Shown: piece by piece, positions 1,306-25,200 of the stretch
Layout of the letters: every line of letters begins with the position of its first letter
Numbering within the stretch: the stretch's first letter is position 1
From: an uncultured Thiothrix sp.
GTDB taxonomy: Bacteria > Pseudomonadota > Gammaproteobacteria > Thiotrichales > Thiotrichaceae
Reading direction: 5' to 3'
Assembly (NCBI GenBank): GCA_964506085.1
Contig: CAZDMX010000001.1
Location: 1 to 25,456, forward strand
DNA length: 25,456 nucleotides
The notes under the pieces: model-generated
What the model saw: the letters and a program-made list of their open reading frames with translations, nothing else
Databases searched by the model: none
What the model was told of the DNA's origin: nothing
Program-made: the position numbers and the translations under genes

Positions 1306-1334
1306 CGAACGAAAAGACTGGAAGGAAAACCAAA

Positions 1335-4144: not shown

Positions 4145-5311
4145 ATGGAAGCACTCTCAAGAGTAGGTAAAAAAATAAACTGTTCTGTAGGTGGTGAAGA
4201 TTACTTTGCCTATATTCCACAGCATCTACCTCCCAAGCCCAATGTCGATCTGGAGGGGCTTTATCCTTTGCTAGAAAAAGCAACTATTGCACTAGGGCGA
4301 CTTGATGGGATGAGTTTAACTCTTCCTGAACCTGCTTTGTTCTTGTATATGTATATTCGTAAAGAAGCTGTGTTTTCATCACAGATTGAAGGAACTCAAT
4401 CTTCTTTATCAGATTTACTCGCTTATGAAAGTACTATAACTCCAGGGGTTCCGCTGGATGATGTAACGGAAGTCTCTAACTATGTAGCAGCAATGAACTA
4501 TGGGTTAGAACGACTTAAAACCTTCCCTTTATCTTTAAGGCTCATTAGAGAAATTCATGGCATTCTTATGTCCAGTGGCCGAGGAAGTTCAAAGGCACCG
4601 GGTGAGTTCCGCACTAGTCAAAACTGGATTGGTGGCTCGCGTCCAGGCAATGCACGTTTCGTTCCACCACCACCGGAACAACTAATGGAGAGCTTAGGTG
4701 CACTAGAATTATTCTTGCATGATGGAACGGTTAAATTACCCTCTTTGATTAAAGCGGCACTAGCTCATGTCCAGTTTGAAACTATTCACCCTTTTCTGGA
4801 TGGCAATGGTCGCCTAGGTCGATTGTTAATAACCTTTATATTATGTGCGGAAGGTGTCATCCAGCAACCTTTGCTCTACCTTAGTTTATATCTTAAAACC
4901 AACAGGCAAGCCTATTATGACCACTTGCAATCTGTTAGAGATACAGGTGACTGGGAAGCCTGGGTTCAGTTTTTTCTGCAAGGAATTGTAGAAACCGCAA
5001 ATCAGGCGACAGAGACGGTACAACTAGTACTCAAGTTATTCGATGCAGATAAAGCTTATATTCAAGCGTCAGGTAAGTCTGCATCAGCAATTTTAACAGT
5101 GCATCAATATTTACAGCATCATCCCGTCACCACTACGACAAGAATAAAGGAATCCTGTGATATGTCATTGCCAACTGTACTAAGGGCATTGAAAACACTA
5201 GAAAGCTTGGAGATAGTAAAAGAAATAACAGGTAAAGAAAGACACAAAGTTTTTGTTTATCGTGAGTACTTGGATCTTCTTAATCGTGGTACTGAGCCGT
5301 TTAATAGTTGA
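4145..5311 (+). CDS. Fic family protein (class II: N-terminal inhibitory helix, Fic domain, C-terminal HTH)
   Basis: Catalytic motif HPFLDGNGRLGR, inhibitory motif SSQIEG, C-terminal winged-helix-like segment (SLPTVLRALKTLESLEIVKEITGKERHKVF). Confidence 0.93.
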   Translation: MEALSRVGKKINCSVGGEDYFAYIPQHLPPKPNVDLEGLYPLLEKATIALGRLDGMSLTLPEPALFLYMYIRKEAVFSSQIEGTQSSLSDLLAYESTITPGVPLDDVTEVSNYVAAMNYGLERLKTFPLSLRLIREIHGILMSSGRGSSKAPGEFRTSQNWIGGSRPGNARFVPPPPEQLMESLGALELFLHDGTVKLPSLIKAALAHVQFETIHPFLDGNGRLGRLLITFILCAEGVIQQPLLYLSLYLKTNRQAYYDHLQSVRDTGDWEAWVQFFLQGIVETANQATETVQLVLKLFDADKAYIQASGKSASAILTVHQYLQHHPVTTTTRIKESCDMSLPTVLRALKTLESLEIVKEITGKERHKVFVYREYLDLLNRGTEPFNS

Positions 5312-5312
5312 T

Positions 5313-6767: not shown

Positions 6768-7420
6768 TCACAGAATATTTGGAACGTGCCTTAAAAGCCT
6801 ATGATCTGAAATTGGAAGACTTTAGCGAGTTAATTAATCGTTTATTGAATTACGGTGTTTTGAGTCGTCAACAAAACCAAAAAGAACAAATGCTTTATGA
6901 CCGCTATCTGCGGATTTCATCACTTATTAATGACTACTTGTCAGTGATGAATGTTATCGTTTTTCATGATGAAAAATTTGAATACTTACGGCTTTATCCA
7001 CCCGGAAGCGCAGTGCCAGGTTTAGAAGTGCAGGACAGTTATACTGGCGGTTTACGAGTTAAGCTAAAACAGTCAGAAATTGTATTAGTGCTAATACTTC
7101 GCATTCAATACGACAAAGGGATTCGTGAAGGACGTGTGAGTATTGATGATCAGGGATATGTGACTGAGAAACTGGAATCCATTTCCATAGCCATGAAAGA
7201 AATACTGAATAGAAAACTACCCGACAACCTCACAGAGCGACGTGAGTTATTTAGTAAGCTACGGCAACTTCGCCTGATTGATTACAACAAGGACACTATT
7301 GATCAGCTACAAGAAGCATGGATAAAGATTTCCCCCATGATTGCCAGTTTTGTCAATGATGATGCATTGGCAGTGTTGGAAAATAGTCAGACAATTCGAG
7401 AGGATGGAGATGCTACTTAA
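6764..7420 (+). CDS. jetB: Wadjet JetB (KITE subunit; DUF4194-like)
   Basis: 218 aa, ATGA overlap with jetA, segments RLLNYGVL, LVLILRIQYD and LRQLRLI typical of tandem winged-helix JetB. Lies between jetA and the SMC ATPase. Confidence 0.83.
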   Translation: MITEYLERALKAYDLKLEDFSELINRLLNYGVLSRQQNQKEQMLYDRYLRISSLINDYLSVMNVIVFHDEKFEYLRLYPPGSAVPGLEVQDSYTGGLRVKLKQSEIVLVLILRIQYDKGIREGRVSIDDQGYVTEKLESISIAMKEILNRKLPDNLTERRELFSKLRQLRLIDYNKDTIDQLQEAWIKISPMIASFVNDDALAVLENSQTIREDGDAT

Positions 7421-10400
7421 GCGCTTGATATTATTGAATTGGGGTAACTTACCCAATCGATCTTATGAATTTGGCTCGGTAAACCTGTTTTCTGGAGGAA
7501 GTGGTTCAGGAAAAACCACAATGGGCGATGCAATACAAACCCTGATGACAGCAGCCTACGATACCTTATACCAATATAACCCAGGGCAAAATGAAAGTAG
7601 GCAACGCAGTAAAAGTGGTAAGCAGTCGCGTTCACTAGCCTCTTATGTGCTGGGCTGTGATGATGGAAGTTATGCGCGACTTGATCCAACGGATGGTTAT
7701 ATTGTAGGAGTATTTTACCCTTCTTCAGAAAATGAAACAGCGCCTCCCTTTACCGCCTTGATGGGCATTCGTGCTTATATTGATCAGACCGTAAATATAA
7801 AAACAGCCCGACAAGATTCTTTGCTGTTTATGATTTTGCCAGCAACAGAGCTAGAAAAAGATGATCTGGTTATTACGCAAGACAGTACTGAATTAATAGT
7901 GACACTGGATCAATTAGAAGCGCACTTTATCAGGAAGTTTGGTAAGCAAAGGTTTGAAGTCTACGACAAAAAAACAGCTTACTTACGTCGTTTGTATGCA
8001 GCTTTTAGGGGGCTGAAAGAGAACGTGGCGGAGCAAGAAGCAATGGCAGCCGCACGCGCTTTTTCCCGTTTTATGGCCTACAAATCGGTAAAAAATATTG
8101 ACCATTTTGTGTCAACAGAAGTGCTGGAGGAAAGAAACCTTGGTGAGGTTATTCAGGATATTTCCCAACAGTTGCGCTCTATACATGGGATGGAGAGTGA
8201 AGCTAAGCAACTAAAGCGTTCGATTACATTGCTAAAACAAGCAGACAATTTTTCCCAAAACTATATCGAATCATGGCTGGAACTGAATACATTGGACTAT
8301 ATGCTGGCGCAATACGATTATTATCAGTTACAACAGCAGTGGCTAACAACTCGAAAAGCTTTTGATAAAAAAAGATCAGATTTAAAGACAGTCGAAAAGA
8401 ATACTAAAACTACTCAGGAGCAACAGCTAGGGCTACATAAGGAACAGGTTAGCCTTGAAGCAAAACGACAAGGTATTCCGGCCTTACAGCAAAAGGATGA
8501 TCTAGAAAAAGAGAAGGATAGTTTAAAAGAGGCGGTTGTTTCAAAGTTTCAGGAATCAGGTGGGCAAAATATACAGCTTGCAACAAACAATGGTAACAGT
8601 GAATTTATCTGTAATCAGTTAGCCAATATTAGTCATGAGGATGATCTTGCAGGCTTTAATAACCTTGAGTTAACGACCTTTTGTCAACAATTTAAGGATG
8701 AAGGACTAGCAGAGAAGATTAATCTTAAGCTATTTATGGATACTGCTATCCTTGAAGATGCTGACAAGCTGGATAAATTGATACAACAAACGAAGTTTAA
8801 ACAGTCTCTTAATAATAACGGGTACGCCTATTGGCATCAGCAAAAAACGGCGAAAAAACAGACCCGTTTTGAGCAATTGGCTGGGATTACACGTAAGCAA
8901 GTTCGGTATTATCAACAGTTAGAAGAGAAGAAAATAGATTTAAACCATAAGATTAGGCGCTTAGAAAGCAATAAAAAGATTTATCCTGCCTATGTTGTCG
9001 AAGCTGTTAATGCTATTCGTAGTCGATATCCTGAAGCTGAGCCAGGCATCCTTTGTGATTATATTGAGGTTGCAAGTATTAAGCTTGATTGGCAATCCGC
9101 TATCGAAGGTTATCTGGGAGGTGCACGGTTTTCAATTATTGTTGATGAGGATTATGAAGCAGATGCTATTCGTCTTGTAAAATCCTTGTATAAAAACAAA
9201 GCTAAAGTTGTTCAGGGAAAACGGGCAAGGCTTGATGTAGAACGTAGCCATCAACAACTGGATCAACGTTCCATTATCCATATTCTGGAGTATGACCATG
9301 AAATTGCGAGATATTACCTGACAGCCAGCTACGGCACAGTCTTACGGGTAAATAATGCCGAAGAACTGAGTCTGGCGCGACGTGCTATTACCAAAGATGG
9401 TATGGGAGCAAGTAGTTATAGTATGTGGGCTCGTTCTCTGCCAGATGAAAAACTGGTGTTTGGAGAGAATGCTCGCTTAAGGGCTTTGGAAGCATTTAAA
9501 AAGGAACTATCCAATCTGGAACAAGAATTGAATCAGGCTAATGACGATATGATAGCCATTCAACACTTTCATGATGCCGTTGAAGCACTATCATCCATTA
9601 AGATTGTTGAGATAATAGAAGAAATGCTACCCCTTCATCAGCAATTAAAAATATTAGAACGAAAAATTGAACAATTGGATTTAGGTGAAGGCAAGAAACT
9701 GGATGAAAAGATAGAAGCACTAGCAAAAGATAAAGAGAATATTGATAGTATGCTTGGCGATTTACAAAAACAAAAAGGGAAGCTGGAAGAGCAAATAGAA
9801 AAACTGACCACAACAAGTAATAAACTCAGTGACCAAAAAGAAAGCTCTCAAAAAATCGTTGAATCCTGTGAGCAGAAGATTGTACAAATTGCTGAGGTGT
9901 GGTCCGATTTTGAGTTTGTAGCACATCTTGAATATGCTGATCAGGAAGCAAAAGCTCTTAATAAAGCTGCAAAGGAAGATGAAAAAAGAGAAGTTAATAA
10001 TTCATTGCAAAAGCATGAGCGTGACCTAGCTAAAAAACTGGATGAATATAATCAGGAATGTAAAGCAGGCGATGGTATCTTTTTCCAAGGTTATGAAGGT
10101 CAGCTTGATAACGCTTTATTCGAGCGTGTTTGTGCCAGACAAACAGATATTAAACGTATTCATAATCAATTGAAGAACAATGTACTGATTAAAATGGATC
10201 AGCAGCTAGGAAGAATTAGGGCTAGTTTTGACAATGCCTTTATTACGAACTTTTGTCATACCATTCATAGTGCCTTAAATACGGGTAAACAACAGATTGA
10301 ACAGCTCAATAAGGAACTTGAAAACCATTATTTTGGTGCTGATAATGAACAATTTCGTTTTGATTCAAAATGGGTTCCAGAATATAAGGGCTATGCTAAA

Positions 10401-11066
10401 TTCTTCCGTGAAGTTGTAAAAAACCCACGATTAGGTGAAAGATCGGGATTGTTCGATGACGAAGCAGACTTTTCAGAAGACGTATTACCTATCCGTGATG
10501 AAATTAAATCCATGCTTTTAGATAACGACAGCGACAAAGCACAACTGGAGTTAAAAAGGATTTCTGATTATCGTAACTACCGACAGTATGAAATATATAA
10601 AGAAGTTGAAGGAAAACAATCGATTCCATTAAGTAAATATGGAACAGGAAGTGGTGGACAACTAGAAACCCCTGCTTATATTATTCGCTCAGCATCTATC
10701 ACGTCATCTTTTCGTTTTGCCACAGGCTCGAATCATTTGAGCATGGTATTAGTTGATGAGGCTTTTTCTTTTATGGATGAACCTCGTTCCAAAGAGATTA
10801 TCAACTACTTGACAGATTCATTAGGCCTACAATTAATCTTTATCATGCCAAGTAATAAAAGTGGCCCCTTTATGGATAAGGTTAATAACCAGTTTGTTTT
10901 TGTGAAATTTCCAAGCCCCAATCTACGTGGAGAATTAAAAACCCAAGTTCAGGTTGATGCCAAGGTTTTGAAAAAAGAAAAAGTAGCGAAGCTTTGGGAG
11001 CTACATAAAGAAATGACCTATCAGCAAGGTGAATTGAGCTTTATGAATAGCTTTCAGGAGTCTTAA
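7410..11066 (+). CDS. jetC: Wadjet JetC (SMC-like ATPase)
   Basis: MLLKRLILLNWG start with GAGGA SD, Walker A GGSGSGKTT, long coiled-coil arms around a central hinge-like region, signature GTGSGGQLE, Walker B LVDEAF. Confidence 0.9.
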   Translation: MLLKRLILLNWGNLPNRSYEFGSVNLFSGGSGSGKTTMGDAIQTLMTAAYDTLYQYNPGQNESRQRSKSGKQSRSLASYVLGCDDGSYARLDPTDGYIVGVFYPSSENETAPPFTALMGIRAYIDQTVNIKTARQDSLLFMILPATELEKDDLVITQDSTELIVTLDQLEAHFIRKFGKQRFEVYDKKTAYLRRLYAAFRGLKENVAEQEAMAAARAFSRFMAYKSVKNIDHFVSTEVLEERNLGEVIQDISQQLRSIHGMESEAKQLKRSITLLKQADNFSQNYIESWLELNTLDYMLAQYDYYQLQQQWLTTRKAFDKKRSDLKTVEKNTKTTQEQQLGLHKEQVSLEAKRQGIPALQQKDDLEKEKDSLKEAVVSKFQESGGQNIQLATNNGNSEFICNQLANISHEDDLAGFNNLELTTFCQQFKDEGLAEKINLKLFMDTAILEDADKLDKLIQQTKFKQSLNNNGYAYWHQQKTAKKQTRFEQLAGITRKQVRYYQQLEEKKIDLNHKIRRLESNKKIYPAYVVEAVNAIRSRYPEAEPGILCDYIEVASIKLDWQSAIEGYLGGARFSIIVDEDYEADAIRLVKSLYKNKAKVVQGKRARLDVERSHQQLDQRSIIHILEYDHEIARYYLTASYGTVLRVNNAEELSLARRAITKDGMGASSYSMWARSLPDEKLVFGENARLRALEAFKKELSNLEQELNQANDDMIAIQHFHDAVEALSSIKIVEIIEEMLPLHQQLKILERKIEQLDLGEGKKLDEKIEALAKDKENIDSMLGDLQKQKGKLEEQIEKLTTTSNKLSDQKESSQKIVESCEQKIVQIAEVWSDFEFVAHLEYADQEAKALNKAAKEDEKREVNNSLQKHERDLAKKLDEYNQECKAGDGIFFQGYEGQLDNALFERVCARQTDIKRIHNQLKNNVLIKMDQQLGRIRASFDNAFITNFCHTIHSALNTGKQQIEQLNKELENHYFGADNEQFRFDSKWVPEYKGYAKFFREVVKNPRLGERSGLFDDEADFSEDVLPIRDEIKSMLLDNDSDKAQLELKRISDYRNYRQYEIYKEVEGKQSIPLSKYGTGSGGQLETPAYIIRSASITSSFRFATGSNHLSMVLVDEAFSFMDEPRSKEIINYLTDSLGLQLIFIMPSNKSGPFMDKVNNQFVFVKFPSPNLRGELKTQVQVDAKVLKKEKVAKLWELHKEMTYQQGELSFMNSFQES

Positions 11067-11068
11067 TT

Positions 11069-12205
11069 ATGACTCTTGTAAAAAAACCAAGATGGCTTGA
11101 GGATTACCCTGAAATTGAGAGCTGTTTACAGGGATTTATCAATAAGCTTGAGATACAGCCTGCAAAAGAAAGAACACGAAAAAAAATACCTTACGCCATT
11201 AACCGTAAAAACTTTCCTTCTTTGTGGCAACAAACAACCGAATCGGATTATCAATGGCAATTAATTCGTGATTTGGAAAGTGATTATGGTATCTGCGAAA
11301 TTAGATTCAATAAAAAAAGAAACCCTTTAGACCCTGAGTTCCATAATGCCAGTATTCAAATATTTTGTGATGCTGAAAAGACAATCAGAAACTGGCTTAA
11401 CCGACCTTACGAAGAACCCTTATTGAAGCAGTGGAAAGAAGTAGTAAAACAACAAGAGTCACTATTTCCAGGAACTATCGAACGGCTTCAATCGCGTATT
11501 TTCAATATTCAAGGAAAGAGTACTAAAGAAGTGGTTAGAGCCTTTATTGTTTTGGGTGAGTACCTAGAAAAGTTCCTTACATTGCGCCAACTAAGTGCCA
11601 GATGTTTTTGGGGTATGTCCAAAATTCTGGATAATCAGGAAGATTTGGTACTCTCGCTTTATCCCGGAATGAATATAAAACCACGACCTTTAATCATTAG
11701 TTTGCATATTCCTGACAATGCAACAGCCTGCTTGTTTATCGAAAATCATGATACCTATGTGAATGCTTTGCAGGGAGATATCCCTATTACCAAACATCAG
11801 GTTTTGGTTTACTGCTCTGGTTTTCTAGGAAGTGCCAACAGGATACGTACTTCGGGTTCGGTTGTTTTTCACTGGTCATCAGGGTCAACTTCCAGTAAGA
11901 AACAATCCTTCGAAAACTGGTGGTTGCATCAATCAGGTTCAAATCTACCTGTGTTCTTTTGGGGTGACTTGGATTACTCAGGCATGGCAATTCTTGCCGC
12001 GTTAAAAAAGGTATTCCCTGAAATAAAAGCCTGGCAACCTGGGTATACAAAAATGTTAGAGGCTCTTGATGAGAAAATGGCTCATGAAGTGGATGTTTCA
12101 GGAAAAAATAACCAAGAGGATCCTGTAACAACAGGGTGTGATTATGCGGATAAAATATTACTGCCAACATTAAGATTGTTATTTGTTGATCAGGAGGTCG
12201 TATAG
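11069..12205 (+). CDS. jetD: Wadjet JetD (TOPRIM nuclease; DUF2220-like C-terminus)
   Basis: TOPRIM motifs FIENHDTY and FWGDLDYSGMAIL, C-terminal FVDQEVV. Starts 2 nt after the jetC stop. Confidence 0.88.
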   Translation: MTLVKKPRWLEDYPEIESCLQGFINKLEIQPAKERTRKKIPYAINRKNFPSLWQQTTESDYQWQLIRDLESDYGICEIRFNKKRNPLDPEFHNASIQIFCDAEKTIRNWLNRPYEEPLLKQWKEVVKQQESLFPGTIERLQSRIFNIQGKSTKEVVRAFIVLGEYLEKFLTLRQLSARCFWGMSKILDNQEDLVLSLYPGMNIKPRPLIISLHIPDNATACLFIENHDTYVNALQGDIPITKHQVLVYCSGFLGSANRIRTSGSVVFHWSSGSTSSKKQSFENWWLHQSGSNLPVFFWGDLDYSGMAILAALKKVFPEIKAWQPGYTKMLEALDEKMAHEVDVSGKNNQEDPVTTGCDYADKILLPTLRLLFVDQEVV

Positions 12206-12781: not shown

Positions 12782-13549
12782 TCAAAAGCCACATATCATC
12801 AGTTCATTTAGCCATGTCTGCAAGTAAGAAACAGCTTGTGCCGGCGTTTGTTCTTCATCGAAGTAATCGAGTAGACCTTCACACAATTCACTAAAATTAT
12901 CCCCTTGAATGGCGCGTGTTAATGCATAAGTTTCAGCATCGTCTAGTGCGCGATATCGACTAATAAGATCTTTTCGCCAAATAATCCATGTTGTGTTGTC
13001 TTGTTCTAAGGTGGGTGGGTTGTTTTCTCCCGTTAAGGCTTTCCATATAGCGAAGCTGTTATGTGTGCAGGGCAATACCTGCACAGAATCATGGAACTTT
13101 AATTGTAATGTTGGCCATGACTCTACCGCTATTTTACTTAAATCTTCAGTACTAAGCGTGGTGCAGTCAGCGGCATCAAAGCTATGGTTAAAGGCTTGTT
13201 CAATCTTTGCAATTTCTACTATTTCCGGATAATCAGCAAAGGGCTTTTGCGTTGAGAGTAACTCGACTAGATATTGGCTGTAATAACGCAAGCTAGGATG
13301 TTGCGATGGGTATTGATTGATATAGCTATCCATGAGCTGATCAAACAAATCATCCCCAAGATAACCATGCAGGCAATCAAAATCTGTCGTAATGGCTTCT
13401 TTCAAGCGTAGGCGATAGCCAATCGCGTAGATATCTAGTCGCCGCTGGGCTGTTGCATCGGGTGTTGATTGAATGCGCTTTGCTACTTCAGAAGGCTCAC
13501 CCTGTAAATGCTTCATAAAGGACTGCTGCAATTCACGTAGCTGTGTCAT
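12782..13549 (-). CDS. bufC: HvfC/BufC-family MNIO partner protein (DUF2063-type)
   Basis: LRELQQSFM start, RLDIYAIGYRLRL, PSQHPSLRYY, EIAKIEQAF, YLQTWLNEL. 17-nt overlap with the DUF692 gene. Confidence 0.85.
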   Translation of the reverse strand: MTQLRELQQSFMKHLQGEPSEVAKRIQSTPDATAQRRLDIYAIGYRLRLKEAITTDFDCLHGYLGDDLFDQLMDSYINQYPSQHPSLRYYSQYLVELLSTQKPFADYPEIVEIAKIEQAFNHSFDAADCTTLSTEDLSKIAVESWPTLQLKFHDSVQVLPCTHNSFAIWKALTGENNPPTLEQDNTTWIIWRKDLISRYRALDDAETYALTRAIQGDNFSELCEGLLDYFDEEQTPAQAVSYLQTWLNELMICGF

Positions 13550-14423
13550 TAGGCGACTCCTTCGGTACGCGCATACGTGGCTGGGTAAGTGCTAGCGCTT
13601 CGGCTGGCAACGTGTTGAAGGCGATTGTTTCGGCTGTTTTAAGTTCATTATGTAACTCGGTGAATTCAGGAATATTGTCATCCCTTTCGATCATGGTACT
13701 AACAGCGCCAAAATGTTGCAGTGCTTTGGCGTATAAATCCCAAACAGGATCACAGACATCATGATCGTGGGTATCAATGATCATTGAACCATTGTAACTG
13801 TGTCCCGCGAGATGAAATTGCATAACGCGATCAATGTCTATGCCTTTTATATAGTCGATAGGCTCGAAGTGATGGTTATGTGCACTGACAAAAATGTTAT
13901 TAATATCTAGCAATATCCAGCAATCTGCGCGACGGGCGATCTCATTGAGGAACTCCCATTCAGATATTTCTGATTCGTTATAGGTTACATAACTGGATAG
14001 GTTTTCAATTAAGAGTTGTCTGCCTAGGTAATCTTGTACTTGCCGGATACGTGCAGCAACATGCTCGATGGTAGTTTCGTTGTAGGGTAACGGCAACAGG
14101 TCGTGACTATTGACTTGATCCACGCTCGTCCAGCACAGATGATCGGATATCCAGTGCGGTTCTACACGTGTTGCGAGTTGTTTTAATTGTTTAAGATAGG
14201 TTTTATTGAGTGGATCAGTACTGCCGATGGAGAGTGAAACACCGTGCATAACCATTGGATAGTCGGCACGAATTTTATCTAGATTATCTAAAGGCTTACC
14301 ACCTGGCACCATGTAGTTTTCACTGAGAATTTCAAACCAGTCAATATCCGGTTTATTATCTAACACATATTGATAGTGTTCTGTACGCAGACCCAAGCCA
14401 AATCCGAGAAAAGGACGTGTCAT
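13533..14423 (-). CDS. bufB: DUF692 multinuclear non-heme iron oxidase (MNIO; BufB/HvfB-like)
   Basis: GFGLGLR, WFEILSENY, HGVSLSIGS, WISDHLCW, LIENLSSY, LLDINN, FHLAGH, IDTHD, IERDD. The metal-ligand motifs appear intact. Confidence 0.94.
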   Translation of the reverse strand: MTRPFLGFGLGLRTEHYQYVLDNKPDIDWFEILSENYMVPGGKPLDNLDKIRADYPMVMHGVSLSIGSTDPLNKTYLKQLKQLATRVEPHWISDHLCWTSVDQVNSHDLLPLPYNETTIEHVAARIRQVQDYLGRQLLIENLSSYVTYNESEISEWEFLNEIARRADCWILLDINNIFVSAHNHHFEPIDYIKGIDIDRVMQFHLAGHSYNGSMIIDTHDHDVCDPVWDLYAKALQHFGAVSTMIERDDNIPEFTELHNELKTAETIAFNTLPAEALALTQPRMRVPKESPNDTAT

Positions 14424-14489
14424 ATTGTTTCCTGAAAGTTGTTGTTTTAATAATGTGTTACCGTCCAGAAAAATCTTATAAATTTAACA

Positions 14490-14663
14490 GTAGGTCGGAT
14501 AAGCGATATAGATACATGGATGTAGTAGGGAAAAGCAGGAGCAATTGCCGAGCGCCACCCGACAAAGGTATGTTAATTCAGGCGCTTGCCGGATGGCGTT
14601 CCTCGGCTTTAGCTTCCTGCGTCGCCCTACCTTCTGCATCCATGCAGTCGTTATCCGGCCTAC
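14490..14663. repeat. Inverted GTAG-REP doublet (REPIN-like), each REP interrupted by a ~42-48 bp insert
   Basis: Left arm GTAGGTCGGATAAGCG...CGCCACCCGAC (14490-14563). Right arm, reverse complement, GTAGGCCGGATAACG...CGCCATCCGGC (14663-14588). These resemble the enterobacterial REP (GTAGGCCGGATAAGGCG...ATCCGGC). Confidence 0.75.
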
Positions 14664-14723
14664 AAACACATCCTTTTTGGATGGTAACTAATTTGTTATG
14701 AGATATTAGGTGTTAGTTAGATA

Positions 14724-14755
14724 ATCCTCAACAAGTATATTCACTCGTTGAGGAT
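14724..14755 (-). other. 13-bp RNA stem-loop between precursor and enzyme genes
   Basis: Minus-strand AUCCUCAACGAGU-GAAUAU-ACUUGUUGAGGAU. The single mismatch is a G-U wobble only on the sense (minus) strand. Confidence 0.55.
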
Positions 14756-14839
14756 AAGCGGTATCTTTAGGTTTTAGAGGACAAGGAAACGATAGTCCTT
14801 AGTGAACACTAGGTTCATTAAAGAAACAGCTGATAAAGA

Positions 14840-15106
14840 CTAACCACCTTCCTTCGTTTTTCCACCAATATGATCACATGATGCAGCGGGCATGGATACG
14901 AAACCGTGACCCTTACATTTTGCATGTCCCTTACAAGCATTCTCTGCTGTTTTACAATCATTGTGGCCTTTACACTTGTTGACGTCATAGCAATGTACAA
15001 TGTTTTGAGTGCCTTCTGCAGTTGCTGTCGTTGACAACGCTGTCATGCCCGCAGCGGATATAGCCAATGCCGCGCCGAGGCTCATTGCTTTTTTTGAAAT
15101 AGTCAT
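14840..15106 (-). CDS. bufA: Bufferin BufA2-type precursor peptide, Sec/SPase I signal
   Basis: Signal peptide ending A-T-A|E (residue 30/31). Core [32 protein letters not shown]...C..IGG with 6 Cys. Upstream of DUF692; AGGA SD. Confidence 0.85.
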
Positions 15107-15229
15107 AATTTAAATCCTGTTGTTTTTAATACCTGAATGGGTGTGAATTTAGGGAAAGATATAGTATTAACTCAAATATTGAGTGTCACTAGACCTACCC
15201 ATTAATGTGATAAAAAGGTGTAGAGGAAC

Positions 15230-15496
15230 TTACTTAACGGTTCCACCTACGTCCCCACAGGCTTTTGCAGACATTTTAACAAAACCATGTCCTTTACATT
15301 TAGCATGTCCTTTACAAGCATTCTCTGCTGTTTTGCAATCGTTATGCCCTTTACATTTATTGACACCGTAACAATATGCGGAATGTTTTTCTGCGGTTGC
15401 AGTATTCCCCGATGATGATGTTCCACTACATGCTGCAAGTGTAGTCGCTGCTGCAAGGGCTAAAGCGATACCTGTGGATGTTTTGATTAAACTCAT
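15230..15496 (-). CDS. bufA: Bufferin BufA2-type precursor peptide, lipoprotein signal
   Basis: Lipobox LAAC (Cys23), Ser/Gly/Thr linker, core [32 protein letters not shown]...C..VGG. AGGAG SD. Confidence 0.85.
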
Positions 15497-15687: not shown

Positions 15688-16227
15688 TCATTTTTTACAG
15701 AGCCAATCATTGAATGCGTTCATCTCAATTTCATCCGTTATGGTTAGCAGGAGATGGGGTAGTCTTGGAGTATTTTGTTGCTGGGGATGGCTTCCATCGT
15801 AGTCGAAGATCAATTGATTCAACAGGTAACGGAATTCGTTAATATGTTGACTGATTTGATCCAGGTATTTTCCTGTAGCGTGCTCAATTAAGTAACGGCC
15901 TTCCATTAAACCCGCTTGGTGAGCACAGCTTTTAGTGATTTCTGTGTGTAAATGAATCAACTCTTCAATGGTTGTTTCTAGAGTATTGAGTGGGATTTTA
16001 TAGTCTTTGTCTTGATCTACTGTGTCATGCAGGGTTAATGATTCTTGATGGAGAGCAGCGATAATTGTTTTTGCCTGCTCTTGCCAGTGACTAAAAATTT
16101 GTTTGTTTTCAATGAGAATAGTGCAGTCAGACTTTGCGGTTAAGTATCTTGAATAATCAATATCTACTTGAAGACATTTGAAGTGCTCAAGGATGGTTTG
16201 ATAAGTTGATATTTTCCTTGAATCCAT
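15688..16227 (-). CDS. Hypothetical protein (~179 aa, predicted helical)
   Basis: Long open frame. ATG 16227 (MDSRKIS) has an AAGGG SD; the listed start at 16275 is the alternative. No family recognised. Confidence 0.6.
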   Translation of the reverse strand: MDSRKISTYQTILEHFKCLQVDIDYSRYLTAKSDCTILIENKQIFSHWQEQAKTIIAALHQESLTLHDTVDQDKDYKIPLNTLETTIEELIHLHTEITKSCAHQAGLMEGRYLIEHATGKYLDQISQHINEFRYLLNQLIFDYDGSHPQQQNTPRLPHLLLTITDEIEMNAFNDWLCKK

Positions 16228-16284
16228 AGCATAGCCCTTATGTTTGCCTGACTGTTCAACCTTTTTTAAAATCATAATGATTAA

Positions 16285-19457: not shown

Positions 19458-20075
19458 ATGATAGCTACGCAAAGAGAACAAAAATATCAAAAACCATTTT
19501 TAGTAGTAGGTCTAGTCGTTGCATTAGGGGCTTTGAGTGGCTGTACTTTGAACGAAGGTGATCCACAGACGACCTTATGTCAAAAACTCACCGCACATTT
19601 AATGAATGCCCAAGGAGTGCAATGGGGTGAAACCAGTAAAACCCCTGGTGCAGATAAAAGTATGAATGTGACCGTTCGATGGGAAAGCCAAGATGCCAGT
19701 GGCACGATTCCTATGCAAGCGGGTTGTACTTATTTATCGAATGAAGATGATGCAGGTGAAGACTTTGAGATGAATATAGAAGGTGAATACCAGGGTGTTC
19801 CTGATAACATGGTGATTAATGGCCAGGCGGTGCGTCAACAGGATTTATATACAGCTATTCACAAAGTAACAGGGCAAGCGATAAGAGAAACCGCTAGCGA
19901 AGAACATTTACGCAAAAAAGCAGCCGAAGCGGATCAGGCAATTCGTGAAGGTGCGGCAGTTGTAAAAGAGAAAGCGGGTGAGGCGGCACAAGTTATCAAA
20001 GAAGGTTCGGAGCAATTTAAGCAGAAAGCGGGTGAGGTTTTGCAAAAGGCGGGGGAGCATTTACAACAGAAGTAA
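19458..20075 (+). CDS. Hypothetical lipoprotein with amphipathic repeat C-terminus
   Basis: Hydrophobic stretch ending in lipobox LSGC (Cys29). The C-terminus has repeated (E/Q)KAGE units. 16 nt after the uvrA stop with AAGGA SD. Confidence 0.72.
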   Translation: MIATQREQKYQKPFLVVGLVVALGALSGCTLNEGDPQTTLCQKLTAHLMNAQGVQWGETSKTPGADKSMNVTVRWESQDASGTIPMQAGCTYLSNEDDAGEDFEMNIEGEYQGVPDNMVINGQAVRQQDLYTAIHKVTGQAIRETASEEHLRKKAAEADQAIREGAAVVKEKAGEAAQVIKEGSEQFKQKAGEVLQKAGEHLQQK

Positions 20076-20224: not shown

Positions 20225-21595
20225 TCAGCTTAAATTTGACGTATTATACAAATATCCCTTACGAGGGATATTGGTAACTAGATTTTTAATATTTGCATGG
20301 GTCAATTTGCCGGTTAGCCGTTGTAATGCTGACCGAATAGAGGGGCCAGAGTTAGGTTTTAATATTTCAATTAATTCATTAACAGTCACTATGCTTCCTT
20401 CATTTTTTTCTAAATAGACAATAATTTCCCACTCTGTTGGGGACAGCGTGACGACTTTACTGGATTGATTTGGAATATGGTAAATAATGTCCCCGGCATA
20501 GCTGTCAGGTGTTTTTGGTTGAAGTGTAATCTTGGGGTGGCCATGAGACGTTTCTTTTTTTGATACAAGTGGTAATTGGTCACTTTCATTCAACATGGAT
20601 AATCTATCTACCGTCACCTCTCGAATAATCTTACAGACAAAACCGATTTTCTCATTTTTCTTATTTAGAATTCCAGCCTGACGTAAAACTCTGATGCCAT
20701 TGACGTGATGTGGCGGGTCTCCTTGAATGACTTCTTTCAGTGTGGTTCGGTAAACCTCAATGGGTAAAATTGACTCGGCCCAATCCAGCTCGGTGAATAT
20801 GCGGGGGCTACAATTTTCTATTATCGTTGGAATCAGTGCTGAAAAAACGGTGTCGATATACTTTGCGTATTCATTAGTAGCCACTTCTGTTCCTTCGCTT
20901 AATAGCTTGCGGATGAAGGTATTGATAGTACGATGTAAAAGAATGGGATGGCCACCTGATATCTGTAGGATATGTTGGCCTATAGAGAGTTTCTCCTTGT
21001 TGAGTATTTTCAACGCTTGCACTTTATCAGGTTTTGTTGCTATAGAGCGTGCGTGGTAATCCAGAACAGACTGGATTATTATGGGTATTTTATTCTCCCA
21101 TAACCCATCCCAGGGCGACAACCACAAGCTTGCAAAGGATGATAGCCCCAGTGAACCTATCATGGTTGTATTTAAGCGTGTTGGGTTTTTTGTGTGGAAT
21201 GATTCATTCAGGCCGGGTAATTCACTTCCTAAAAAATGCGCGCGTGTGGGAGTGCATGAAGTGGCAATAACAATCCGTTCGTCAGCACTGTTCAAGTTTC
21301 TAAATTCAATCTCTAGTTTACTATCATAGATATGATCAAGGTTGTCGATTAGTAGTATTCCCTTATTGTCTTCTGCACGACACCATTGAATAATTTCTTT
21401 GATGTCTTCTTGTTTGTTTCTGATGGAGCCTTTAATAAACAAGGTTTTCACACCATCTCTATTAAGTGCTTCTAACAGCTTTTCAATAAAGACAGATTTT
21501 CCCATGCCAGGACCGGCCTGAATGATTGTTTTCTCAGGTAGTGCTATTAAATCATTTAAGCGGTGTTGATATAAAAATGGAAATGAATCATTCAT
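20225..21595 (-). CDS. STAND-like P-loop NTPase with C-terminal OmpR/Trans_reg_C-type winged helix
   Basis: Walker A AGPGMGKS, Walker B LLIDNLD, GxP helical-domain motif SGGHPILL. C-terminal LSPTEWEIIVYLEKNEGSIVTVNEL...SALQRLTGKL...LVTNIPRKGYLY matches the OmpR wHTH pattern (LTxxExxLLxxL...GxVVSREEL...IxRLRxKL...IxTVRGxGY). Confidence 0.75.
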   Translation of the reverse strand: MNDSFPFLYQHRLNDLIALPEKTIIQAGPGMGKSVFIEKLLEALNRDGVKTLFIKGSIRNKQEDIKEIIQWCRAEDNKGILLIDNLDHIYDSKLEIEFRNLNSADERIVIATSCTPTRAHFLGSELPGLNESFHTKNPTRLNTTMIGSLGLSSFASLWLSPWDGLWENKIPIIIQSVLDYHARSIATKPDKVQALKILNKEKLSIGQHILQISGGHPILLHRTINTFIRKLLSEGTEVATNEYAKYIDTVFSALIPTIIENCSPRIFTELDWAESILPIEVYRTTLKEVIQGDPPHHVNGIRVLRQAGILNKKNEKIGFVCKIIREVTVDRLSMLNESDQLPLVSKKETSHGHPKITLQPKTPDSYAGDIIYHIPNQSSKVVTLSPTEWEIIVYLEKNEGSIVTVNELIEILKPNSGPSIRSALQRLTGKLTHANIKNLVTNIPRKGYLYNTSNLS

Positions 21596-21625: not shown

Positions 21626-24600
21626 CTAGATAATATGATTGTTTTGAATCCAGTCCGCTAATAAAGGAGCGGAAATTCTGATGCTATTATTCTTCTTGTT
21701 AAATCCACCCATTGCATCAAGGTCGTAAAATAAATCTTTCACATCACCAAGGGTGGCTTGTATTTTCAGGGAATCATTACTCGGATGTTTGTTGTTCAGA
21801 TATTTATTATTTATTGACTCAATAACCTCATCTACAGTTACCCAAGTTTTTGACCATTTTTTGCCTTTCATTTTCCTGCGTTCAAACAAGAGTTCCAGAA
21901 CACATTTCACATATTCGTGTAGGCCGCTCTTATCATAATAGCCTTCGGGGAAAATTCGATCAGCGAACAAGGTATCGTTTGATAATATTTCGTCACGAGC
22001 TCTTCGGGCATCAGTTTCGGTAAATTCGACCATCTCACCACTGGCTGCCTTTTGAGAGGCATATTCCCACATTTTCCGTCCTAAATGGTTTAACCAAAAT
22101 GGGTTGCCATTGGTGATTTTCCAGAGGTTATTAGTGATGTGATTGTTGACGCTGATTCGGTATTTCCAGCGTAATTGATTAACGCTCAATAGTTCCCTAG
22201 CATGGAATTGGGAAAAAGGTTTAACTTCCACAGGGTCACTGGCGCGAAGTATGTTTTTCAGGTCGACGTGTAATGAGTTGACGGGGGCTTTGGGGCCAAT
22301 CCAGATTAATAATGTGCCTGGTTTGTTATAAATCATTCCGGAAAACTGTTTAATGTTCTCAAGCTCTCGTGAGTCTCCTGCCGAATCCGCAACATGTGCT
22401 TGGCGAAAAGGGATTAAAGCCTCGTCAACAATAAGTACGGTTACGATGCGTTTCTTGTGGTTTGTAGTTTGACCAGATACTTCCAGGATTTCTTCAAGAC
22501 ACTTGCTGTTAGGATTAGGGCCTTGGAAATAATCCCGACCTTTATAGTGCTCGTTAATCTCTTTTTGTAGTCCTTCTGCTAACTTGTTCTCCACATCACT
22601 CCAATGGTCTTGTGTTTGTGCCTGATAATAAACAACAAGAGGAAGCACATTTTCATTTTGTTGCTTAAGTGTGCGCTGAAACCGATAGGCTAGACTGGTC
22701 TTTCCTGTTTTTAAGGGGCCTGAGATAAACGCTTTACCTCCAGCAAAGGTGGAGATGGCTTGGTAATCAAAAGCATGTTGAAGTTCGGCTAATTGTTCTT
22801 CACGGTTATAAAAATTCTGATCTTGCTTAACGACGCCACCACAAGTATAAGGTGCTGGAATCATTGCATTTTGCATGTTTAAATCATTGCGAGGAGGTAG
22901 TGCATTTTCCAGAATGGGAGTTTTGGGGTCGTTGGGGCCAAGAATGCGCTGAATATTGTCTAGCATTTTTAGTTTTTTATGTACGGCTATTATGCTGTCC
23001 GTAGATACAAGCCCTACTTCAATGCGTATAACACTCCAGTCTTGTCCTAAGTGTTTACCAATAACCTCCGTCACTGTAACTCCTAAATCATGTAGTGTGT
23101 TTAGGATTTGACTAAGAATGCCTTCTGCACCGTTAATTTCACCACTGATTTCAAAGAGGAAATATTGCCCCATCGTTGGACGTAATCGAGTTTCCACTAC
23201 CTCTCCACCTTCTCCGCATGATGCGTTTCTGCGGTGGAAAACAAGCGTGTTATTTTTAATTTTTATGACGCGTTCACAATGCCGATCGGGTGTACATTTT
23301 TTGCAGATAGAGATACTTAGTTTACCTTTTCGGGTTCCTTTGGTAATGAGGTCTTCTTTGGGGAAATGGATTGCAGAATTAACCCAGCCTTTTAATGAGT
23401 GGATAAAGACTCTTTCTTTGTAATCATCGATGTCAGAAGTAAAAGGGTAGCTGGTATCTTTACAATTTTCTTTTTCTTCTTTAATGCCTAGCTCATTGAG
23501 CCATCGACGTACATTAAACAAATCTACCTTGTGTGATGAGGATTGGCTCGTAAATATAATACTATTGGCTTCTGAGACGACGGCCTGTAATACCAAGTCA
23601 CGAACGTCATCAGTCATGTGGGCGTATTGAGGAATGATTTTACATAAACGATCATTTCCATTTGCAATAAAATTTTCCGCTAGGTTGATTTTTAACTTAC
23701 GACGAAGATGTCGTTTTTTTGTAGTGGTAAGGGTATCCCACCCTTGAGGTAGCAACGAATAGCTATCATTGACATGTAGCTCTACTTCATCTCCATCTGC
23801 AAGCTGATCCAAAAGTTTCAATTTCTTACTTTTATTCACAATGGCATATTCAGTTTTACCCACAAAACTGTCGTGCAAATGAGAGGAAAAATCTAAAACG
23901 GTAGAACCCAGCGGAAGATCACAAAAATTTCCTCTGGGGGTATATATTCGAATGTTCTTGTTCTTCTCAGGAGTGCGTTTTTCTTTCATGTGCTTGGCGA
24001 GCGCGCTTTTCCAAGGGTGTTGTGAGGTCTTTTCTTTAACAATAAAACGCACATGTATCCTGCTCTGTATTTTATTCTCTCTGATGTCTATGATGGTGTG
24101 GATGGCTTTGTAACCAGAAGGAGGAGGGTTGCCAATAAAATCTGTGAAATATTCATCAAGACTTAATACCGATCGGTGAGTATGTAAATGCCCCAGTAAC
24201 TGATAGCAATTTTCAATACTTTGGCAGCGTACGGTAACAAACCCGATACGCCACAAATTGACGCTAATATTATGAGGGTGAATATCACCTAGTTTGAGCT
24301 TGTTTCTCATTGAGGCAACGTGCCGCCATTTCCATTCGATACTTTTAATATCATGGTTGTTTAAGCAAGAAAGCTTCGAAGAAAAAATACTAATAATTTG
24401 CTCGAGATGTTTTTTGCTTTGCGCTTTTACCGCAGGGTCTTTACACTTTTTTATTATTTTTTGTGCGAGATCATATTCAGCCCCTATAAATGAAATATCT
24501 TGAAGCGTATTGCGCTCACACCACAAGCCGCAGTATTCGGCACAAGCTGCGACAACAAAGCGTGTGAACTCGAGCTCTTTTTTATATTCACCCGAATAAC

Positions 24601-25039
24601 GTTTACGTGACGTCTCTGGTAATAAGATGGGGCTATATCTATCAAGCTTAGGCAAATCGCAGATCTGTGATTTATAATTCCTTGTCCAGTTTTGTATTCG
24701 ACCTTGAGGATCCCATTTAGACAGATGTTCGAATACTAAAAAGGGAATGGCTCTGGGTTCAATAAGCTGTGTTAGTTGGTTTCTAAAAAAAGAATGTTTA
24801 TTTTTGCCTTCGCATTTGCTCGGTCTTTTTTTCTTTAGATGTTCCCACTCTTCTAGTAATTGACTTGTATCGTCGCTGAGTTTTCTGCGATCTCTTTTCC
24901 TGATTGTGTAATTACCAGATGCCTCAATAAGCACATCATCCCCTTGATAAATAGTAGTAACTAATTCATCTAGACGTTTCGGAAAAGGAGGTAATTTAAA
25001 CCCACTTTTCATTTTTAAATGATGATAGGGATAGCGCAT
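21626..25039 (-). CDS. RelA/SpoT-like scaffold (degenerate HD and SYNTH, TGS, ZFD, ACT) fused to a STAND-like NTPase
   Basis: SYNTH-like NCYQLLGHLH...FTDFIGNPPPSGYKAIHT (~24211-24096). TGS IYTPRG..DLPLGSTVLDFSSHLH...GDEVEL (~23950-23777). ZFD CKKCTP...FHRRNASC (~23305-23217). ACT-like segment (~23165-22940). Then PYTCGG...FYNREEQL, Walker A GPLKTGKT, Walker B VLIVDEA, GNPFWL. TAAGGTG SD. Confidence 0.82.
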   Translation of the reverse strand: MRYPYHHLKMKSGFKLPPFPKRLDELVTTIYQGDDVLIEASGNYTIRKRDRRKLSDDTSQLLEEWEHLKKKRPSKCEGKNKHSFFRNQLTQLIEPRAIPFLVFEHLSKWDPQGRIQNWTRNYKSQICDLPKLDRYSPILLPETSRKRYSGEYKKELEFTRFVVAACAEYCGLWCERNTLQDISFIGAEYDLAQKIIKKCKDPAVKAQSKKHLEQIISIFSSKLSCLNNHDIKSIEWKWRHVASMRNKLKLGDIHPHNISVNLWRIGFVTVRCQSIENCYQLLGHLHTHRSVLSLDEYFTDFIGNPPPSGYKAIHTIIDIRENKIQSRIHVRFIVKEKTSQHPWKSALAKHMKEKRTPEKNKNIRIYTPRGNFCDLPLGSTVLDFSSHLHDSFVGKTEYAIVNKSKKLKLLDQLADGDEVELHVNDSYSLLPQGWDTLTTTKKRHLRRKLKINLAENFIANGNDRLCKIIPQYAHMTDDVRDLVLQAVVSEANSIIFTSQSSSHKVDLFNVRRWLNELGIKEEKENCKDTSYPFTSDIDDYKERVFIHSLKGWVNSAIHFPKEDLITKGTRKGKLSISICKKCTPDRHCERVIKIKNNTLVFHRRNASCGEGGEVVETRLRPTMGQYFLFEISGEINGAEGILSQILNTLHDLGVTVTEVIGKHLGQDWSVIRIEVGLVSTDSIIAVHKKLKMLDNIQRILGPNDPKTPILENALPPRNDLNMQNAMIPAPYTCGGVVKQDQNFYNREEQLAELQHAFDYQAISTFAGGKAFISGPLKTGKTSLAYRFQRTLKQQNENVLPLVVYYQAQTQDHWSDVENKLAEGLQKEINEHYKGRDYFQGPNPNSKCLEEILEVSGQTTNHKKRIVTVLIVDEALIPFRQAHVADSAGDSRELENIKQFSGMIYNKPGTLLIWIGPKAPVNSLHVDLKNILRASDPVEVKPFSQFHARELLSVNQLRWKYRISVNNHITNNLWKITNGNPFWLNHLGRKMWEYASQKAASGEMVEFTETDARRARDEILSNDTLFADRIFPEGYYDKSGLHEYVKCVLELLFERRKMKGKKWSKTWVTVDEVIESINNKYLNNKHPSNDSLKIQATLGDVKDLFYDLDAMGGFNKKNNSIRISAPLLADWIQNNHII

Positions 25040-25052
25040 GGCACACCTTATA

Positions 25053-25154
25053 TTATCGATATGATCGATAATAATAGCTTATTTCTTGACATTTTTGAAA
25101 TAAGGGTTATATTATTTATATCATCGAAGTTATCGGAATAATCGAAGTTATCGG
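25053..25154. promoter_or_regulatory. Divergent promoter region with operator-like repeats
   Basis: TTGACA (25086-25091)-N16-TATATT (25108-25113). Inverted repeat CTTATTTC-N11-GAAATAAG (25078-25104) straddles the -35. Exact direct repeat ATCGAAGTTATCGG at 25123-25136 and 25141-25154. Further ATCGAT motifs at 25055-25069. Confidence 0.55.
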
Positions 25155-25200
25155 TATCTAAGAGATTTAATAAGAATAATAAATAACAGGAGCTAAAAAA

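Follow-up and report, generated by a model that had tools for sequence, protein, structure and literature searches.

The 25,456-nucleotide stretch of an uncultured Thiothrix sp. genome analysed here (the window; GenBank assembly GCA_964506085.1, contig CAZDMX010000001.1, positions 1 to 25,456) carries a gene for a 1137-residue protein related to the long RelA/SpoT homologues (RSH proteins), in which canonical catalysis has very probably been lost at both the hydrolase and the synthetase site. The most fitting name for the protein is an RSH-derived double pseudoenzyme, which Atkinson et al. would denote [hs]; judged from the alignments of its relatives, the loss of the active sites is not decay but a conserved feature of a two-gene family that had not been named before. 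The interval singled out by an earlier note on this DNA, 23990-25039 on the minus strand, is the 5' third of the open reading frame (ORF) 21626-25039 and encodes residues 1-350. The gene and the features of this third, with residues numbered along the 1137-residue protein and the supporting programs in brackets (AF2, AlphaFold2), are as follows.

21626-25039, minus strand: RSH-like gene, a 1137-residue ORF with pseudo-HD, pseudo-synthetase (pseudo-SYN), TGS, helical, zinc-finger and ACT/RRM domains, then a C-terminal AAA+/STAND-like ATPase with winged helix
24440-24982, minus strand: pseudo-hydrolase (HD-fold) domain, residues ~20-200, with metal-ligand positions R22, Y44-T45 and E104 (hhalign, MAFFT)
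24905-24910, minus strand: Y44-T45, at the site of the catalytic His-Asp dyad, SpoT H72-D73 (deep hhalign)
24020-24367, minus strand: pseudo-synthetase of the RelA_SpoT nucleotidyltransferase fold, residues ~225-340 (Pfam, phmmer, hhalign, AF2)
24320-24334, minus strand: W236-K-W-R-H240, in place of the G-R-x-K-H ATP-binding motif (MAFFT, hhalign)
24248-24253, minus strand: W263-R264, at the Mg-binding catalytic Asp (phmmer, MAFFT, hhalign)
24047-24061, minus strand: R327-I-H-V-R331, the strand that bears the catalytic Glu in active enzymes (hhalign, MAFFT)

The ORF starts with an ATG at 25039, six bases downstream of AAGGTG, and its N-terminus is kept in the closest homologue; the plus-strand ORFs within 23990-25039 are short and unremarkable. 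Pfam models matched along the protein are TGS, RelA_SpoT, AAA_22, ATPase_2 and AAA_16.

Residues 1-350 are a genuine RSH hydrolase and synthetase region, and their homology is solid at the level of whole domains, not from motifs. When the N-terminus of the 96-sequence family (the N-terminal 362 positions of the alignment A3, which holds 96 of ~105 full-length relatives) was compared by hhalign with 16 canonical RSH N-termini, a match of probability 99.6% and E 1.6e-24 was obtained, pairing query positions 11-336 with E. coli SpoT 42-326 at good per-column confidence through the HD domain; this comparison is the deep hhalign referred to throughout. The AlphaFold2 model of the 1137-residue protein, computed with the family alignment as input, has a mean predicted local distance difference test score (pLDDT) of 87.6, and Foldseek searches of the PDB returned ribosome-bound RelA (5iqr, E 3e-20), full-length SpoT (7qpr) and Rel (6yxa), as well as the two-domain catalytic fragments of RelSeq (1vj7, 24io), S. 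aureus Rel (7oiw), B. subtilis Rel (8acu) and T. thermophilus Rel (6s2t, 6s2u, 6s2v) over 340-371 columns. E. coli RelA (E 4.5e-13) and B. subtilis Rel were also found in the PDB by phmmer, and the NCBIfam model TIGR00691 (spoT_relA) aligns residues 349-696 with its positions 349-682 of 687. The curated cut-offs for full-length enzymes are missed by a wide distance (75.7 bits against 499 for TIGR00691, 49.5 against 728 for the RelA equivalog and 29.6 against 947 for the SpoT equivalog).

The earlier note had reasoned from short motifs, and its strings do occur where it placed them: LDELVTTIYQGDDVLIE at residues 23-39, WKWRHVASMRNKL at residues 236-248, LWRIGFVTV at residues 262-270 and RIHVRF at residues 327-332. 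The structural motifs that it described as retained, CY..LG..H (residues 278-286) and GY..IHT (residues 309-315), are present as well and are nearly invariant across the family. Taken alone, these short motif matches are not above chance. In a shuffle test scored with BLOSUM62, the HD motif reaches a score of 11, which 42% of shuffles match, and GRxKH..KM a score of 20, matched by 5.7% of shuffles; for YDLxAVRI and EIQIRT, the top-scoring window lies elsewhere than at the site chosen in the note.

The synthetase fold is recognizable by several routes: a borderline Pfam RelA_SpoT match (26.6 bits against a cut-off of 27), a phmmer alignment to residues 272-327 of RelA in 5iqr, and beta strands at residues 231-238, 266-272, 312-321 and 324-334 of the AlphaFold2 model. 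Within this fold, the GREKH motif of SpoT (GRPKH of RelA; G251-H255) falls opposite WKWRH, so that hhalign and MAFFT bear out the pairing with GRxKHxYSIxxKM. The catalytic Asp (D264 of RelSeq and B. subtilis Rel, D275 of RelA, D259 of SpoT) is placed at R264 by phmmer, MAFFT and hhalign, and at W263 in the register of the earlier note, which is favoured by a subclade with F-D-R-x-G at this site. For the catalytic Glu (E323 of RelSeq, E319 of SpoT, E335 of RelA), the counterpart is H329 by hhalign and MAFFT, or R327 in the earlier register. In active enzymes, D264 and E323 form the catalytic, Mg-coordinating pair (PMC7983052), and the D264G substitution in B. subtilis Rel abolishes synthesis (PMC7797070). 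Asp and Glu are absent throughout residues 258-272 and 322-335, which leaves no small shift of register that could bring back either residue, and LWRIGFVTV lacks the catalytic Asp and RIHVRF the catalytic Glu in both registers, as had been claimed. Rescue of the site by catalytic residues in a shifted register was considered and is ruled out by the same absence; the alignment to the active sites of RelSeq, RelA and SpoT brought none to light. The window protein has also lost the helix (AExGxAAHWxYKE) found after the IRT strand of active enzymes.

The subclade just mentioned (P0029, P0033, P0038, P0044 and P0071 in A3) combines F-D-R-x-G at the Asp site with an acidic residue near the Glu strand and W-E-W-H-H at the GRxKH position. 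From these residues, the subclade seems to represent a step on the way to complete loss of the active site.

The HD-fold domain is aligned by hhalign with good confidence (query 11-200 to SpoT 42-200) and is helical in the AlphaFold2 model (pLDDT 81-94); it carries a ~24-residue insertion after the helix equivalent to that of 'LADRxHN', lacks the N-terminal ~40 residues of long RSH proteins, and is not matched by Pfam HD_4, either in the window protein or in 44 family members. In the hhalign/MAFFT register, the RSH motif QxRxSGE becomes LKMKSGF, the first metal-binding His (SpoT H48) becomes R22, and the conserved Asp of 'LDxxTI' corresponds to D34, with 'LD' placed at G33-D34. The HD dyad (SpoT H72-D73) is replaced by Y44-T45 and the following SpoT E76-D77 by K48-R49, and the Asp of 'LADRxHN' (SpoT D139) has its counterpart in E104, the sole acidic ligand to persist. 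Three of the four metal ligands are thus gone, and the protein lacks the full Mn-binding H...HD...D set and the ED motif that mark active hydrolases; no His ahead of H286 is invariant in the three closest homologues. The pairing of the dyad with actual residues is seen only in the deep hhalign, as a shallow hhalign and MAFFT open a six-residue gap at or beside N43-T45; through the rest of the HD domain, all three alignments share one register.

The earlier note had taken the dyad to have changed from HD to DD, and this did not survive: the proposed match is of the chance-level kind described above, lies ~10 residues out of register, and D34-D35 are never paired with the dyad. The underlying alignment of LDELV... 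to LDEET... was accordingly rejected, being equalled by 42% of shuffles and at odds with the register used by hhalign and MAFFT. The broader conclusion, that the catalytic residues of the hydrolase are missing, stands despite the wrong register and is stronger than it had been put. With the canonical residues of both sites absent in every register tested, the protein should neither synthesize nor hydrolyse (p)ppGpp by the known mechanism, in agreement with what the note had proposed.

The wider family mostly has xH...FLHG...E-Q-L-D-H at the HD positions, the two His columns being occupied in 80/96 and 76/96 members. Read out column by column in A3, query residues 22, 44, 104 and 107-108 correspond to His in 80, His(-Gly) in 76, Glu or Asp in 80 and Asp-His in 39/52 of the 96 sequences, and the clade of the window protein has R, Y, E, S and K there. 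By these columns, the family overall is a case of HD-to-HG change, and the window's clade is one that has lost even the histidines; members outside this clade may keep a residual metal site.

Family-wide comparison indicates that these losses are maintained. In a word-indexed protein search, the full-length relatives were limited to P0001 (60% identity, from a Thiotrichaceae metagenome-assembled genome, MAG) and P0002 (43%), and an exhaustive profile search recovered 123 representatives at E <= 1e-30, of which ~105 are 950-1300 residues long and align end to end. These full-length relatives, at 20-61% identity, share the same length and architecture. Across the 96 sequences of A3, the catalytic Asp column contains R in 40, L in 11, S in 6 and other residues in the remainder, with an acidic residue in 7/96, and the catalytic Glu column contains A (21), S (15), L (12) and others, with an acidic residue in 4/96. 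At the GRxKH columns, a replacement motif has taken hold instead (W in 94, E in 74, W in 92, R or H in 89 and H in 82), giving the consensus W-E-W-[R/H]-H, and W236, W238, G266, Y279, H286, D300, Y310 and T315 are nearly invariant in the pseudo-synthetase domain. Mean conservation is 0.38 for the pseudo-HD domain, 0.40 for the pseudo-SYN domain, 0.36 for the ATPase and 0.52, the highest value, for TGS. Conservation of the dead domains thus matches or exceeds that of the ATPase and extends to a new motif, so that these domains are under purifying selection. Among the 44 members screened with Pfam, TGS was matched in 42, AAA_16 in 39, AAA_22 in 38, RelA_SpoT in 36, ATPase_2 in 31, ACT in 12-13 and HD_4 in 0.

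The family amounts to about a hundred diverged lineages, almost all known from metagenome assemblies, and its members are currently annotated merely as 'TGS domain-containing protein' or 'hypothetical protein'. A scan of a genome collection returned the Thiotrichaceae MAG alone, and a scan of metagenomes with 6 sequences added 3 further loci. Four hydrothermal-vent metagenome runs contain 52-56% of the 31-mers of the RSH-like gene, from which it appears that the source organism or a close relative lives at vents.

Downstream of the dead catalytic region, the complete C-terminal set of a long RSH protein is present (TGS, helical, zinc-finger and ACT/RRM domains), followed by a conserved LPPR...PY linker and an ATPase module of ~400 residues.

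23771-23956, minus strand: TGS domain, residues 362-423 (Pfam E 3.7e-11; alignment to RelA 394-463)
23369-23740, minus strand: helical (AH) domain, residues 434-557 (AF2 helices 442-557; within the TIGR00691 alignment)
23183-23317, minus strand: zinc-finger domain, residues 575-619 (TIGR00691 alignment; C579, C582, H602, C608)
22940-23167, minus strand: ACT/RRM domain, residues 625-700 (AF2 beta-alpha-beta-beta-alpha-beta; R672)
22220-22813, minus strand: P-loop ATPase core, residues 743-940 (Pfam AAA_22, ATPase_2, AAA_16; Foldseek)
22694-22720, minus strand: Walker A, GPLKTGKTS
22421-22426, minus strand: Walker B, D872-E873
21629-22219, minus strand: lid and winged-helix region, residues 941-1137 (AF2 secondary structure; Foldseek over ~420-430 columns)
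22100-22108, minus strand: G978-N-P980, a 'GxP'-type motif

In the TGS domain, H389 aligns with RelA H432, and the column is His in 61/96 members; in RelA, H432 stacks on the CCA end of tRNA (PMC7797070, for H432/H420). The zinc ligands C579, C582, H602 and C608 are kept in 92-93/96 members, and R672 of the ACT/RRM domain is found in 96/96, the ACT or ACT_4 models themselves being matched in 12-13/44. The ATPase looks competent by its motifs, as G779, K780, S782, D872 and E873 are invariant in 96/96, G978 is likewise invariant and P980 occurs in at least 90% of members. Of the Pfam models in the window protein, AAA_22 scores above its gathering cut-off, and ATPase_2 and AAA_16 score below theirs. 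Foldseek matched the module to PF01637-type proteins (2fna, 2qen; TM-score 0.65) and to ORC1/Cdc6, with NLR resistosomes ranked lower.

The second gene of the family lies immediately downstream, and a set of repeats lies upstream.

20225-21595, minus strand: partner gene, 456 residues, with a P-loop NTPase, then a helical region and, at the C-terminus, a probable winged helix of OmpR/PhoB type
25051-25155, no strand: repeats upstream of the RSH-like gene, one inverted (10 nt) and one direct (18 nt) (repeat search)

The partner gene follows the RSH-like gene after 30 nt on the same strand and encodes a Walker A motif (GPGMGKS), a Walker B-like motif (LLIDNLD) and GGHP. Its Pfam matches are weak (AAA, Trans_reg_C and nSTAND_NTPase5); Trans_reg_C reaches 20.4 bits against a cut-off of 26.2 and gives sub-threshold matches in 4/6 orthologues. 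In AlphaFold2, the C-terminal domain has the topology expected of an OmpR/PhoB domain, with a beta-sheet, three helices and a hairpin wing (pLDDT about 80-87 for residues 355-450, in an otherwise weak model from 3 sequences), and it resembles AdeR, ToxR, SaeR, CadC and PhoB in Foldseek at TM-scores of 0.6-0.73, with weak E values of at least 5e-3. An orthologue of the partner lies directly downstream in 9/9 loci that have downstream sequence, at GC contents of 0.40-0.72. The genes flanking the pair are unrelated among loci (TamAB and SLT; enolase and DivIC; PAS kinase and serine dehydratase; WD40 and peptidase M14; GT87 and Dabb), and no third gene is conserved across the nine. On this arrangement, the partner is an obligatory neighbour with a predicted DNA-binding domain, and the two genes are probably co-transcribed. 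This partner and the fused ATPase with its intact Walker motifs put the strongest constraints on function, and neither figures in the interpretation given in the earlier note. Paralogy of the two NTPase domains was also considered and rejected, hhalign giving a probability of 30% over the winged helix only.

The RSH-like gene is preceded by a perfect inverted repeat of 10 nt (TATTATCGAT/ATCGATAATA; 25051-25073), which lies 12-34 nt ahead of the ATG, and by a direct repeat of 18 nt at 25120-25155. An inverted repeat with a related ATCGAT core, TAAAATCGATA/TATCGATTTTA (locus L005, 3686-3719), also lies upstream of the P0002 gene. The ATCGAT core common to both repeats could be a candidate operator for the winged helix of the partner.

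Neighbouring genes differ from locus to locus. In the window, SoFic and Wadjet genes lie 9-17 kb from the RSH-like gene with UvrA between them, and GmrSD lies at a distance of 10 kb in one further locus. Housekeeping and metabolic genes make up most of the neighbours in the 8 loci other than that of the window, and defence genes are not consistently nearby among the loci compared. Searched against PADLOC-DB 2.0, the two genes gave only marginal matches (E >= 3.7e-4), the best for the RSH-like protein being the candidate model PDC-S33 at E 3.7e-4. No family members on plasmids or phages were found in the collections searched, where only canonical RSH genes matched.

Our tentative preference, held at a little short of even, is that the dead RSH scaffold may act as the sensor of a switch made of two NTPase proteins, with binding to DNA as its output. 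The C-terminal domains of long RSH proteins suit such a role: with them RelA and Rel read deacylated tRNA on the ribosome, and SpoT binds regulators. Under the preferred reading, the RSH scaffold would have been kept by selection as a sensing or regulatory module, which would respond to a usual cue of the RSH C-terminus (uncharged tRNA, the ribosome or a small ligand) or to a guanine nucleotide or alarmone in the remnant pocket. The RSH part would then shift conformation as Rel and RelA do, with the pseudo-catalytic N-terminus perhaps supplying the switch, and the shift would control a coming together of fused ATPase and partner NTPase that depends on nucleotide; the winged helix of the partner would then bind DNA and alter transcription. 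The output would be direct and not via an alarmone. A dead RSH domain with a regulatory role has a precedent in the pseudo-hydrolase of RelA (Atkinson 2011, PMC3153485), and the RelA pseudo-HD domain has been put forward as a conformational switch (PMC3153485; bioRxiv 10.1101/2020.12.14.421628).

Several points weigh against this proposal. The residue equivalent to RelA H432 is Q in P0001 and Y in P0002, the two closest homologues, and docking in the ribosomal A site in the manner of RelA might not tolerate the 440 residues that follow ACT/RRM. The model of the partner is of low confidence (pLDDT 62.5), its Pfam matches fall below gathering thresholds and its Foldseek E values are no better than 5e-3. 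The interaction of the two proteins is inferred from gene adjacency alone, and hhalign finds no clear relationship between their NTPase domains. Finally, most members outside the window's clade keep H..HG..E..DH and may have a residual metal site or other chemistry there.

Among the alternatives, one is a refinement of this model with a specific ligand: the dead pocket, or an inter-domain allosteric site, might bind (p)ppGpp, GDP or GTP, and the protein would then respond to alarmone from the canonical RelA/SpoT of the cell and relay this to the ATPase and the partner. The residues of the acceptor site are well conserved (D300 in 87/96, Y310 in 91/96, H314 in 82/96, T315 in 88/96 and R or K at 299 in 59/96), and Hogg et al. 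are said to have found, in 2004, that the equivalent Tyr and His of RelSeq contact GDP. The arginines that replace the metal-binding acids (R264, R327/R331) would moreover suit a phosphate-rich ligand without Mg. The same acceptor residues are, however, also core residues of the fold, so their conservation is no proof of binding, and the window protein has Thr at 299 and Pro at the K304 equivalent and has lost the helix after the IRT strand. The alarmone binding suggested in the earlier note is thus compatible with the surviving part of the acceptor site (D300, Y310, H314, T315) but not demonstrated by it; a dedicated alarmone or guanine-nucleotide receptor is rated unlikely. Genuine catalysis of another kind would be harder still to accommodate. 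Such a cryptic enzyme might use W-E-W-[R/H]-H, H286, D300 and H314, or the H..HG..E..DH set of most members, and it is true that the replacement motifs are nearly invariant, that the HD metal positions of most members still have two His and an acidic residue and that one subclade keeps F-D at the catalytic Asp. Yet in the window protein, E of the replacement motif is K237, the His positions are R22, Y44 and K108, and the two catalytic strands bear no carboxylate pair; cryptic activity of this protein is deemed very improbable because even the family-specific polar residues are missing.

The proposal in the earlier note that the protein might act as a decoy for phage anti-RSH factors gained no support. 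In its fullest form, the dead RSH would mimic the host RelA/SpoT as an integrated decoy, and binding of a phage factor would trigger the STAND-like ATPase in the manner of an NLR. In keeping with this, the ATPase module is STAND/ORC-like with a GxP-type motif and matches NRC2 and Sr35, NLRs of plants, at lower rank in Foldseek, the two-gene cassette occurs rarely and patchily and sits in unrelated neighbourhoods, the window also contains SoFic and Wadjet genes, and RelA_SpoT domains have been reported at the N-termini of fungal NLRs (bioRxiv 10.1101/2022.03.16.484565). Against it, neither protein has a recognizable toxic effector, the sole output domain being the predicted DNA-binding winged helix; PADLOC yielded nothing beyond the weak PDC-S33 match; the N-terminal domains are no more variable than the rest and show no hypervariability; and the surroundings of the other loci and the collections of phages and plasmids offer no consistent defence islands and no relatives. 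We regard anti-phage decoy function as improbable, and give equally little weight to a broader NLR-like immune or stress receptor, in which a dead full-length RelA/SpoT would act as decoy or guard for phage or toxin factors or for starved ribosomes and a STAND-like ATPase pair would signal to DNA with no alarmone. Least credible of all is a decaying relic, a duplicated relA/spoT in the course of losing function. Loss of both active sites would fit, but the 1137-residue ORF is intact, full-length relatives keep the same length and architecture, both the ATPase motifs (without variation) and the motifs that replace the catalytic ones are maintained, and the partner is kept across GC contents of 0.40-0.72; decay is contradicted by this conservation and can be given almost no credence.

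The usual view of long RSH proteins is of enzymes whose sensing domains control (p)ppGpp levels. The family adds to this a clear case of a double pseudoenzyme under selection, in which the sensing scaffold has been kept, the canonical catalytic residues of both sites have been lost and an ATPase switch and a predicted DNA-binding partner have been gained. If the scaffold still senses tRNA, ribosomes or alarmones, a stringent-type signal would be wired to gene expression without a second messenger, and, if true, the family would offer a natural separation-of-function variant for studying the regulatory domains of RSH proteins.

Other parts of the window contain features of separate interest. 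A defence island at 4145-12205 (plus strand) directly follows ruvCAB and a ybgC-like thioesterase gene, and comprises a SoFic-type Fic protein (PADLOC SoFic E 5e-123) and then a complete type I Wadjet system, JetA, JetB, JetC and JetD (PADLOC E from 1e-180 to 0). At 1293-1835 (plus strand), the TTG at which the listed RuvC ORF begins matches position 45 of the Pfam RuvC model. The N-terminal part left out of the ORF (KIRILGIDPGSRFTGFALID...) can be read in the same frame just before it, at 1293-1463, but has no ATG, GTG or TTG, which suggests either a non-canonical start codon or a sequencing error. At 12782-15496 (minus strand), genes for an MbnB/TglH/ChrH (DUF692) enzyme and a DUF2063 protein lie downstream of two paralogous 88-residue ORFs on the same strand; both ORFs have a signal-peptide-like N-terminus and a common Cys-rich motif, and neither has a Pfam match at E <= 0.001. 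By its gene content, this region looks like a precursor-modification cluster for a ribosomally synthesized and post-translationally modified peptide (RiPP). Finally, uvrA is flanked by a 195-residue ORF (15688-16275, minus strand) and a 205-residue lipoprotein-like ORF (19458-20075, plus strand), neither of which has a Pfam or PADLOC match.

Set beside known systems, the window protein is closest to the long RSH enzymes, such as E. coli RelA (5IQR), B. subtilis Rel (6YXA) and RelSeq (1VJ7). It shares their six-domain order (HD, SYN, TGS, helical, zinc-finger and ACT/RRM) with significant profile and structure homology and keeps the zinc ligands and the TGS His, but it lacks the defining residues of both catalytic centres, has WKWRH for GRxKH and adds an ATPase and winged-helix module of ~440 residues at the C-terminus. 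Precedents for loss at a single site are RelA [hS] and the Moraxellaceae SpoT [Hs], in which one dead domain is kept as a fold with a regulatory role (PMC3153485). A. baumannii SpoT (7QPR) is among the top structural matches of the window protein, yet RelA and this SpoT are stand-alone enzymes of ~700 residues that keep one activity, whereas here both are lost and an NTPase is fused. Atkinson et al. 2011 (PMC3153485) mention neither 'ATPase' nor 'AAA', and no description of a doubly inactive long RSH protein, or of an RSH-ATPase fusion with such a partner, was found in the open-access literature subset that was searched, a result that does not by itself establish novelty. The distinction from CapRel-type toxic small alarmone synthetases (toxSAS) drawn in the earlier note is upheld by the full long-RSH domain set and the weakness of the PDC-S33 match. 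CapRel(SJ46) and other toxSAS share the RelA_SpoT nucleotidyltransferase fold and are likewise accessory genes; they are described as small, catalytically active toxins without HD, TGS and ACT domains (PMC11782079), unlike the 1137-residue window protein, which is devoid of active-site residues.

For the fused module, the nearest relatives are the PF01637-type archaeal ATPases (SSO1545, 2FNA; PABY2304, 2QEN) and ORC-Cdc6 proteins, with which the C-terminal 400 residues share the fold, Walker A and B, the GxP-type motif and a terminal winged helix. MalT and AfsR are STAND transcription regulators, and regulators of the SARP/AfsR type combine an NTPase with an OmpR-type winged helix as the partner is predicted to do, although the order in the partner (NTPase, then winged helix) is the reverse of that in AfsR. 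To our knowledge, no PF01637, ORC-Cdc6 or STAND-type member carries an RSH scaffold, and, unlike in STAND regulators, the sensor and the DNA-binding output would be divided here between two polypeptides. Fungal NLRs are also reported with RelA_SpoT N-terminal to a STAND NTPase (bioRxiv 10.1101/2022.03.16.484565), but they contain the synthetase domain only, in the effector position, joined to NACHT or NB-ARC and C-terminal repeats, whereas the window protein is bacterial, has no repeats and carries a full-length RSH region that is, by its residues, catalytically dead.

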